Source of the DNA: a plasmid
DNA length: 64,000 nt
Sequence record: NZ_CP028351.1
Direction: 5' to 3' (one strand)
Shown: positions 56,747 through 57,605 of the stretch, in pieces
Layout: every line of letters starts with the position of its first letter
How positions within the stretch are numbered: the first letter of the stretch is position 1
The notes under the pieces: generated by a model
Told to the model about the DNA's origin: nothing
The model's input: only the letters and a program-made list of their open reading frames with translations
Databases searched by the model: none
Made by a program: the position numbers and the translations under genes

Positions 56747-57061
56747 CTATGCCGTCCCGTCACTCCCCTGGGACGTCACGAGCCCCGGATGCAGAGGCAC
56801 GCCGGAAACGTCCGTATTTTCACGCGCTTTGTGCAGATCGCATGCAGCCTGCATGGATAACCAGAGCCGCGCTGAAATACCCAGCCCCGCCTCCAGCCGA
56901 AGAGCCATTTCCGGGCTTACGGAGGCTTTTCCGCCTGACACTTTGCTCAGCGATGCCGCCGAAACGCCCAGCTGTTTAGCCAGACTGCGCATACTGATGT
57001 CATTATCTTCCAGATATTCCGCTATCAGGCTGCCTGGGTGTGGCGGTTTAAACATTACCAT
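56747..57061 (-). CDS. higA: HigA-family antitoxin (XRE HTH) of the Proteus/Vibrio-type HigBA system
   Basis: MVMFKPPHPGSLIAEYLEDNDISMRSLAKQLGVSAASLSKVSGGKASVSPEMALRLEAGLGISARLWLSMQAACDLHKAREN matches Rts1 HigA ([78 protein letters not shown]). A GAGGA SD is present. The ATG overlaps the upstream higB stop (TGATG). Confidence 0.75.
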   Translation of the reverse strand: MVMFKPPHPGSLIAEYLEDNDISMRSLAKQLGVSAASLSKVSGGKASVSPEMALRLEAGLGISARLWLSMQAACDLHKARENTDVSGVPLHPGLVTSQGSDGTA

Positions 57062-57240
57062 CAATGATAATCCTCGCGGTTGAGAATGAATGCGTCGACG
57101 TCCGTGAATCCGAATGTGATGTGCCAGTTTGCTCTGACCGGAACTGAATAGACGTTCTTTCTTTCCCCGTGCCTGGGTAAAAGCGAAAGCCCGGCTTTTC
57201 ATTGTACAATGGTTTGTTTTATTCACTGCGGAGGTCTTTA
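57061..57240 (-). pseudogene. higB: Truncated higB toxin remnant, C-terminal about 43 codons only
   Basis: The minus-strand frame gives [48 protein letters not shown]. This aligns with the HigB C-terminus (...KLHPLKGDREGYWSITVRANWRITFQFINGDAYILNYEDYH). The N-terminal half is missing, and the upstream DNA is now the yefM promoter/gene. Confidence 0.5.
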
Positions 57241-57491
57241 TGAAAGCCATCATTTTCGGCGAAGCCCGACGGAATCTTTCTGCCACGATGATTCAGACGG
57301 CAGAAGATAAAGCGCCAGTAATGATCATTCGCCGGAACGGTGAGTCCTGCGTGCTGATGTCGACTGAAGAATATAACTCACTGGAAGAGACGGACTGGCT
57401 ACTGCGATCGCCCAGGAATGCCCGCAGATTGATGGATGCTATCGAAAGCCTGCGAAGCGGTGACGGGACTGACAGGAATGTGATTGCGTAA
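57240..57491 (+). CDS. yefM: YefM-family (Phd-type) antitoxin
   Basis: [76 protein letters not shown] is near-identical in pattern to E. coli YefM ([76 protein letters not shown]). The palindrome CATTGTACAATG at 57199-57210 sits in its promoter. Confidence 0.85.
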
Positions 57492-57577
57492 AACTGTCCA
57501 GGTCCGCAGAAGCCCGGCGGGTCTTTGCCGTCAGTGGGGATGCTCTGTCAATCGCCTTATGCCGCTATCATTATTGA
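57488..57577 (+). pseudogene. yoeB: yoeB toxin remnant with a large internal deletion and a lost start codon
   Basis: The frame after yefM reads (gta)[29 protein letters not shown]. coli YoeB has MKLIW at the N-terminus and ...RRITEEHRLVYAVTDDSLLIAACRYHY at the C-terminus. About 55 internal codons are missing, and the E. coli GTG start is GTA here. Confidence 0.55.
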
Positions 57578-57605
57578 CGGGCTCAGGAGTTTACCCCTGA
57601 GCCCT
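57578..57605 (+). terminator. Stem-loop after the yefM-yoeB remnant
   Basis: GGGCTCAGGagtttaccCCTGAGCCC is a 9-bp stem between convergent genes. Confidence 0.45.

Follow-up and report, generated by a model that had tools for sequence, protein, structure and literature searches.

Orphan higA and yefM genes on a pPag1-type plasmid are probably leftovers of two wrecked addiction modules

Introduction

Does an antitoxin gene that stays open beside a destroyed toxin gene still serve its plasmid, or is it a leftover? This question is raised by a stretch of plasmid DNA from sequence record NZ_CP028351.1, 64,000 nucleotides long and referred to below as the window, in which two toxin-antitoxin (TA) modules, higBA and yefM-yoeB, lie back to back. 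Each module has an open antitoxin gene (higA or yefM) and a damaged toxin gene (higB or yoeB). Both antitoxins are already annotated in RefSeq, and the toxin remnants are unannotated pseudogenes. The original prediction, made from the window's letters, read the locus as ordered toxin decay with antitoxin retention, possibly giving immunity against incoming plasmids that carry the same TA families. A two-step erosion of TA systems, in which the toxin is pseudogenised first and the antitoxin later, has been described in a survey of Photorhabdus (PMC13617665, where Mine et al. 2009 is cited too). Both TA families, orphan antitoxins, toxin-first erosion and the anti-addiction idea are all already published. 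Here we compare the locus with related plasmids and conclude that it is probably the wreck of two back-to-back addiction modules, whose antitoxin genes are leftovers.

Results

The four elements of the locus, higA, the higB remnant, yefM and the yoeB remnant, lie where they had been predicted (Table 1), with open reading frame (ORF) and profile matches in agreement. Both antitoxin genes are open and intact, with 104 codons for higA and 83 codons for yefM. HigA scored 86.1 bits against the TIGR02607 antidote_HigA equivalog model (cut-off 47.7) and also matched the HTH_3 domain, and its nearest solved relative is HigA of Proteus vulgaris (4MCX_A, E = 2e-16). Similarly, YefM scored 136.1 bits against the YefM equivalog model NF008499 (cut-off 121) and was matched by E. 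coli YefM 2A6Q_A at E = 1e-32.

The toxin genes were aligned with the same locus of plasmids carrying either intact higBA (Pantoea agglomerans pSUH1_B, L002) or intact yefM-yoeB (P. vagans LMG 24199 pVag2, L003, and P. agglomerans TH81, L004). Relative to pSUH1_B, the window lacks 256 bp, comprising 147 nt of higB (49 codons including the start) and 109 of the 153 intergenic bp. With this deletion went the first 49 codons of higB, the higBA promoter, the -35 region of yefM and the two TGTTTC-N7-GAAACA inverted repeats, present in pSUH1_B and LMG 24199, that are likely the HigA operators. Codon 50 of higB is now joined to a position 10-11 bp ahead of the -10 box of yefM. What remains of higB, whose TGA stop shares one base with the higA ATG, matches just positions 57-91 of the 91-position Pfam HigB-like_toxin profile (15.4 bits, cut-off 27). 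When an intact HigB was used as a tblastn query, its residues 51-93 aligned to the remnant (E = 6e-16), and a full-length HigB (about 92 aa, PF05015) upstream of higA was not found in the window. The remnant has probably suffered one further 1-nt deletion near 57173/57174. The truncation of higB to its C-terminal end had been foreseen; the accompanying view, in which the missing half falls together with the promoter and gene of yefM, was inaccurate, and a plain 256-bp deletion was found instead. Insertion of yefM-yoeB into higB was also considered and ruled out: in pSUH1_B, where higBA is intact, the intergenic region is normal at 153 bp, and the window is simply missing 256 bp.

The 90-nt yoeB remnant differs from the intact LMG 24199 and TH81 alleles by an in-frame deletion of 165 bp, exactly 55 codons (10-64), in keeping with the internal loss of about 55 codons and the change of GTG to GTA noted before. 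Where the yefM stop and the yoeB start overlap, ...GAGTGA... is now ...GCGTAA..., so that the yefM stop is kept (TGA to TAA) and the yoeB GTG start is lost (GTA). No full-length YoeB (84 aa) overlaps the yefM stop; the remnant matches positions 58-80 of 80 only in the profile, with 18.1 bits (cut-off 27). According to the 2A6Q work, the deleted segment includes the catalytic Glu46 and most of the sheet. No paralogue of yoeB or higB was found in the 64-kb window, and judged from the window sequence, activity of HigB or YoeB is implausible.

The alignments confirmed the toxin losses and showed that the frames had not been misread. An assembly artefact was excluded by independent assemblies, since the same junctions are present in pPag1 of P. 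vagans C9-1 (L001), in a plasmid of P. vagans FDAARGOS_160 (L005) and in four metagenome contigs. A metagenome scan for the 18-nt yoeB deletion junction gave 57 matches, 53 of them by chance and 4 from true window-type loci; these four share one yefM protein and add little to the estimates of selection given below.

A decay series was then drawn from the interval between the MBL and uvrA-like genes in the 49 pPag1-type plasmids of the plasmid collection. The interval has yefM-yoeB intact and higBA absent in 18 plasmids (state A), higBA intact with yefM present and yoeB dead in 11 (state B), the window's state in 2 (state C), higA only in 13 (state D), essentially nothing in 3 (state E, where Pantoea sp. 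Lij88, L008, retains a short higA fragment) and yefM only in 2 (state F). Both modules were intact in 0 of the 49. In LMG 24199 (L003 1600-1760, state A), the DNA between higB and yefM is complete, includes both operator repeats and lies against the MBL stop codon, and the higBA coding sequences are cleanly excised, the entire TA pair being gone in one step. Because this plasmid keeps the complete higB-yefM intergenic region without the higBA genes, the ancestor of the pPag1 family appears to have carried both modules. As a separate observation on the 49 plasmids, intact higBA always goes with dead yoeB, and intact yefM-yoeB always goes with absent higBA; this mutual exclusion of intact modules could be due to shared ancestry of two clades or to incompatible divergent promoters.

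States B, F and C have in common the GTG to GTA change and the YefM substitution Y53W, and their internal yoeB deletions differ and overlap. Since the start-codon change is common to the three states while the deletions differ, the start codon was probably lost first and the internal deletions followed independently. The yoeB genes of pSUH1_B and L009 retain codons 10 to about 28, which are gone in the window, and lack the 3' end, which is present in the window. A single deletion shared by the two yoeB-dead lineages was ruled out, the GTG to GTA change alone being common to both.

Later steps of decay reach the antitoxins. In state D, a deletion runs from the last 8 higB codons through yefM to the terminator, and two plasmids of this state (L096 and L097) have a 1-bp frameshift in higA. 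Lij88 (state E) keeps the D junction; its higA has CTG in place of the ATG and is missing three-quarters of its length from the 3' end. FDAARGOS_160 (state C) carries a 1-bp higA frameshift distinct from that of L096 and L097. Orphan higA has thus been inactivated independently at least three times (L005; L096/L097; L008). On this comparison of sister plasmids, toxin loss preceded antitoxin loss at this locus, an order that TA biology would predict, since antitoxin loss ahead of toxin loss is lethal.

Selection on the orphan antitoxins was gauged by Nei-Gojobori estimates of the ratio of nonsynonymous (N) to synonymous (S) substitution rates, dN/dS. For yefM, the ratio was 0.02-0.05 between alleles with intact yoeB and 0.74-0.79 between two orphan lineages (about 32 N to 12 S); the orphan counts differed from those of toxin-linked pairs (Fisher p = 1e-5) and were indistinguishable from neutral (p = 0.72). 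Compared with the consensus of toxin-linked Pantoea alleles, the window YefM has 20 of 83 residues changed, located in both the DNA-binding and the toxin-binding halves, and E. coli K-12 YefM has only 13 of 83 changed. For higA, intact modules gave ratios of 0.03-0.06, and state C compared with state B gave 0.10-0.17; of the polymorphic codons in window-type alleles, 10 were nonsynonymous and 7 synonymous. The window and FDAARGOS_160 diverged by 0.092 in higA, 0.092 in the higB remnant, 0.071 in yefM and 0.093 in the yoeB remnant, with 0.037-0.043 in the flanking functional genes; both antitoxin genes diverge as fast as the adjacent dead toxin remnants. Purifying selection on the antitoxins after toxin loss was not found, given the orphan yefM ratios and the higA counts with three knock-outs, save for a single yefM pair at 0.22 (discussed below), and selective retention of the antitoxins is not supported. 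Of the predicted ordered decay with antitoxin retention, then, the order stood, borne out by the sister plasmids, and the selective retention found no support in the near-neutral yefM and the relaxed higA.

The operator-like palindrome predicted at yefM, CATTGTACAATG, occurs once in the 64 kb, at yefM itself, and is identical to the core of the 'L' operator mapped for YefM in E. coli, TCATTGTACAATGA (comparison with PMC1802561). The -10 of the E. coli yefM promoter lies within the L palindrome, and 17 bp upstream of it comes a -35 element (PMC1802561); in the window, the position equivalent to this -35 is taken by the higB-remnant sequence AGCGAA. A YefM-YoeB module of this kind has paired L and S TGTACA palindromes, spaced 12 bp centre to centre, that overlap the -10 box. 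At the 'S' repeat position (57215-57220) the window is degenerate, with TGTTTT; intact Pantoea alleles have TGTATT there, and E. coli has TGTACA. The higBA promoter is absent altogether from the window, and a bare TACAAT -10 and good ribosome-binding sites persist for the antitoxin genes. In Rts1, a weak internal higA promoter lies inside higB. A scan for sigma-70-like promoters gave no consensus match on either strand of 56650-57700, being a crude scan that also misses the intact higBA locus. In pSUH1_B (L002 2361-2372; higBA intact, yoeB dead), the YefM L operator is mutated (CATTGTAAAATG), and it is intact in the window; by this comparison, the control region of orphan yefM appears to decay by different routes across lineages.

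Several observations weigh against the view that the antitoxin genes are leftovers. The sole within-lineage yefM pair, the window and FDAARGOS_160, gave a dN/dS of 0.22 (8 N, 10 S), which is below neutral (binomial p = 0.004) and not significantly unlike toxin-linked pairs (p = 0.08); some residual constraint on yefM is possible. The window YefM also retains R10 and R31, and the L operator with its TACAAT -10 remains intact at yefM. The promoter consensus scan is insensitive and cannot prove silence. Moreover, both ORFs are uninterrupted in the window as well as in C9-1 and numerous P. vagans records, and 30 YefM and 42 HigA variants were clustered, nearly all of them full length; the variant count is biased in that pseudogenes would not enter a protein collection. 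Variant numbers give a rough comparison: there are 30 in the orphan YefM cluster, where the 15 listed cover about 77 contigs, all of one species, and 53 in the toxin-linked cluster, where the 15 listed cover about 600 contigs of several species, 289 of them from one sequence.

The strain background bears directly on a possible role for HigA. The window is collinear with pPag1 of P. vagans C9-1 (98% identity over 24 kb), and its HigA is exactly the P. vagans protein AVV39905.1 / WP_107320505.1. The host plasmid is thus of the P. vagans pPag1 type, most likely pPV989-167 of the clinical isolate PV989 (PMC5971314). A search for contigs encoding the window HigA returned none on record. Strain PV989 also carries the conjugative plasmid pPV989-94, in which an intact higBA lies beside psiA (L093). 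HigB from pPV989-94 shares 94% identity with the HigB of the pPag1 family, and HigA from the same plasmid shares 76% with the window HigA. Five sites are private to the window higA when compared with C9-1 and pSUH1_B; all five match pPV989-94, and all lie in gene positions 231-249. Over gene positions 166-260, the two higA genes differ at 2 sites, with identical runs of 50 and 41 bases, and a longest run of at least 50 identical bases in higA has a permutation p of 1e-4. We consider this patch a likely gene conversion between co-resident plasmids of PV989, and the two higA genes would therefore once have shared a cell. Conjugative plasmids of Pantoea and Erwinia often carry an intact higBA of this type.

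These data bear on the anti-addiction alternative, in which the orphans are kept to neutralise the HigB of a conjugative plasmid, whether incoming or co-resident, or a YoeB paralogue encoded at another place in the genome, and blunt post-segregational killing. For HigA, a source of cognate toxin would be close at hand, namely pPV989-94 in the presumed strain PV989 and the many conjugative plasmids of Pantoea and Erwinia with this higBA type, and the two genes would have met in one cell, as the conversion patch suggests; yet 9 of the first 26 HigA residues are unlike those of the pPV989-94 protein, and C9-1 is in the same state as the window with no second higA match in the plasmid collection. 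For YefM, the within-lineage ratio of 0.22 speaks for a retained function, but the gene evolves near-neutrally between orphan lineages, and the 64-kb window holds no paralogue of either toxin. The orphan ORFs are widespread in P. vagans, yet higA is relaxed and was knocked out three times independently, and the HigA operators, the higBA promoter and the yefM -35 have all been deleted, with no promoter-like site found in 56650-57700. Anti-addiction modules described so far are functional TA pairs under selection. The concept itself is established for ccd (review PMC2654758). Co-residence with pPV989-94 makes cross-neutralisation concrete and testable, and is not evidence that it happens. Altogether, the anti-addiction alternative seems unlikely, though it is the strongest competitor of the leftover interpretation. 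Its narrower form, in which a HigA expressed at a low level would protect the host from HigB of conjugative IncFII-type plasmids such as pPV989-94, with occasional gene conversion keeping the match, is a longer shot still; if true, the orphan HigA would be a plasmid-borne anti-addiction device against rival plasmids.

Repurposing is another conceivable fate, with HigA (a helix-turn-helix protein), the YefM repressor or both now controlling other genes. Both families are DNA-binding repressors, and the YefM L operator is still present, but its single copy stands at yefM itself with no further one in the window. The four TGTTTC-N7-GAAACA-like repeats in the 64 kb each have two mismatches and are not above chance (2.4 expected). 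With the elevated dN/dS and the repeated gene loss also against it, we regard repurposing as very improbable. Finally, that the toxin genes are really intact, through misread frames or an assembly artefact, can be practically dismissed, given the clean 165-bp and 256-bp gaps in base-level alignment to intact loci, the junctions repeated in independent assemblies and metagenome contigs, and missing toxin parts that are encoded in no alternative frame.

The TA remnants sit between an MBL-fold hydrolase gene (55859-56698, + strand) and a convergent UvrA-like gene (60188-57651, - strand). The stem-loop between the yoeB remnant and the latter (Table 1) is retained even by sister plasmids without any TA gene, and an Rfam scan of 56500-57800 at E <= 1 gave no match. 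A search of the E. coli genome returned distant matches only (60-80% identity), which were of no help in mapping the junctions. A synteny-anchor scan of genome contigs with the C-terminal 300 aa of the UvrA-like protein yielded one Pantoea locus (L011, with yefM-yoeB intact), the family being too widespread.

The UvrA-like gene encodes an 845-aa UvrA paralogue. Beyond Pantoea, where identity reaches 92%, the best relatives of its C-terminal 300 aa, at about 57-61% identity, are from Polyangiaceae, Mycobacterium, Pseudarthrobacter, Sphingopyxis, Nocardioides, Cryobacterium and Streptomyces, and the gene may have been acquired horizontally. It also has a hyper-divergent patch at 58800-58899, with 14 differences per 100 positions from C9-1. 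In FDAARGOS_160, the MBL hydrolase gene (L005 760-1599) has an internal stop and a dN/dS of 0.32 against the window, and higA (1649-1962) is frameshifted too; decay in this lineage reaches beyond the TA genes. The comparison of the window with C9-1 is mosaic: the roughly 1.2 kb at 56900-58100, which hold the TA remnants and the uvrA-like 3' end, contain only 3 differences, against 2-4% in the flanks and about 10% in 56700-56900. Between the window and LMG 24199, yefM has a dS of 0.46 and the backbone a dS of 0.07-0.15. This pattern suggests that P. vagans pPag1 plasmids have exchanged alleles through homologous recombination.

Table 1. Coordinates of the TA locus features in the window
Feature	Position	Strand	Description
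higA, orphan HigA-family antitoxin ORF	56747..57061	-	104 aa; HTH_3 / TIGR02607
Gene-conversion patch in higA, pPV989-94 allele (likely)	56813..56831 minimal, about 56802-56896 maximal	-	gene positions 231-249
higB pseudogene remnant	57061..57194	-	3' 134 nt, approximately codons 50-93 plus stop
256-bp deletion junction	57193..57195		from alignment to L002, L003 and L004; placement ambiguous by 1 nt
YefM 'L' operator palindrome CATTGTACAATG	57200..57211	+	includes -10 hexamer TACAAT (57205-57210)
yefM, orphan YefM antitoxin ORF	57240..57491	+	83 aa
yoeB pseudogene remnant	57488..57577	+	codons 1-9 fused to codons 65-84; GTA start; junction 57514|57515
GC-rich stem-loop, likely terminator	57579..57604	+	between yoeB remnant and convergent uvrA-like gene

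Discussion

Taken together, the results favour a history in which two modules once stood together on a domesticated Pantoea pPag1-type plasmid: higBA of the Proteus/Rts1 type and, transcribed divergently from it, yefM-yoeB of the E. coli type. In one lineage, a G-to-A change, probably the first lesion of yoeB, killed its GTG start, with the overlapping yefM stop going from TGA to TAA, and separate internal deletions followed. In the P. vagans branch of the window, a 165-bp deletion took YoeB codons 10-64, and a 256-bp deletion the 5' half of higB with the shared control region. As neither toxin could be made, the locus would neither kill nor stabilise. The antitoxin genes, unneeded and stripped of native promoter elements, would be evolving at or near the neutral rate and heading for the loss already seen in sister plasmids.

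One syntenic spot thus displays nearly every stage of TA erosion, from a lost toxin start, through an internally deleted toxin and an orphaned, neutrally evolving antitoxin, to a frameshifted antitoxin and finally nothing; the stage with both modules is inferred, not sampled. A preprint presents pPag1 as a vertically inherited, domesticated plasmid (bioRxiv 10.1101/2024.10.17.618910). Such a replicon has little use for post-segregational killing, and the series agrees with the view that domestication of a plasmid makes its addiction modules dispensable. For annotation, the toxin remnants should be called pseudogenes, and HigA or YefM labels are not proof of working TA systems. The orphan HigA and the related intact higBA in PV989 also offer a cheap test case for antitoxin cross-talk.

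Among known systems, the higBA half resembles HigBA of Proteus vulgaris Rts1 (4MCT/4MCX) in its toxin-first gene order and stop/start overlap. The intact pPag1-family HigB aligns end to end with 4MCT_B (E = 2e-32), and paired inverted repeats lie upstream of higB in intact Pantoea relatives. It differs in that the HigB of the window is reduced to the last 44 or so codons, with the promoter and both operator repeats deleted, so that no toxin is possible. The other half resembles YefM-YoeB of E. coli K-12 (2A6Q; PMC1802561): YefM has 83 aa, the core of the L palindrome matches exactly, as does the -10 (TACAAT), and the overlapping GTGA stop/start is kept in intact Pantoea alleles. Unlike in the E. 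coli system, the window YoeB lacks codons 10-64 and its start, the control region has a degenerate S repeat and other sequence in place of the -35, and the window YefM has 20 substitutions compared with toxin-linked Pantoea alleles. The anti-addiction ccd of the Erwinia chrysanthemi chromosome, set against F-plasmid ccd (reviewed in PMC2654758), is similar in that a resident antitoxin is homologous to that of a co-resident mobile plasmid, whereas the window antitoxins are orphaned, without recognisable promoters and under relaxed selection. The two-step erosion of PMC13617665 shares with this locus the truncation of toxins by deletion, the persistence of antitoxin ORFs and later antitoxin frameshift or deletion in syntenic relatives. 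It differs from the window locus, which lies on a large, vertically inherited plasmid and not on a chromosome, and in which two unrelated modules stand side by side and one deletion hits both control regions.

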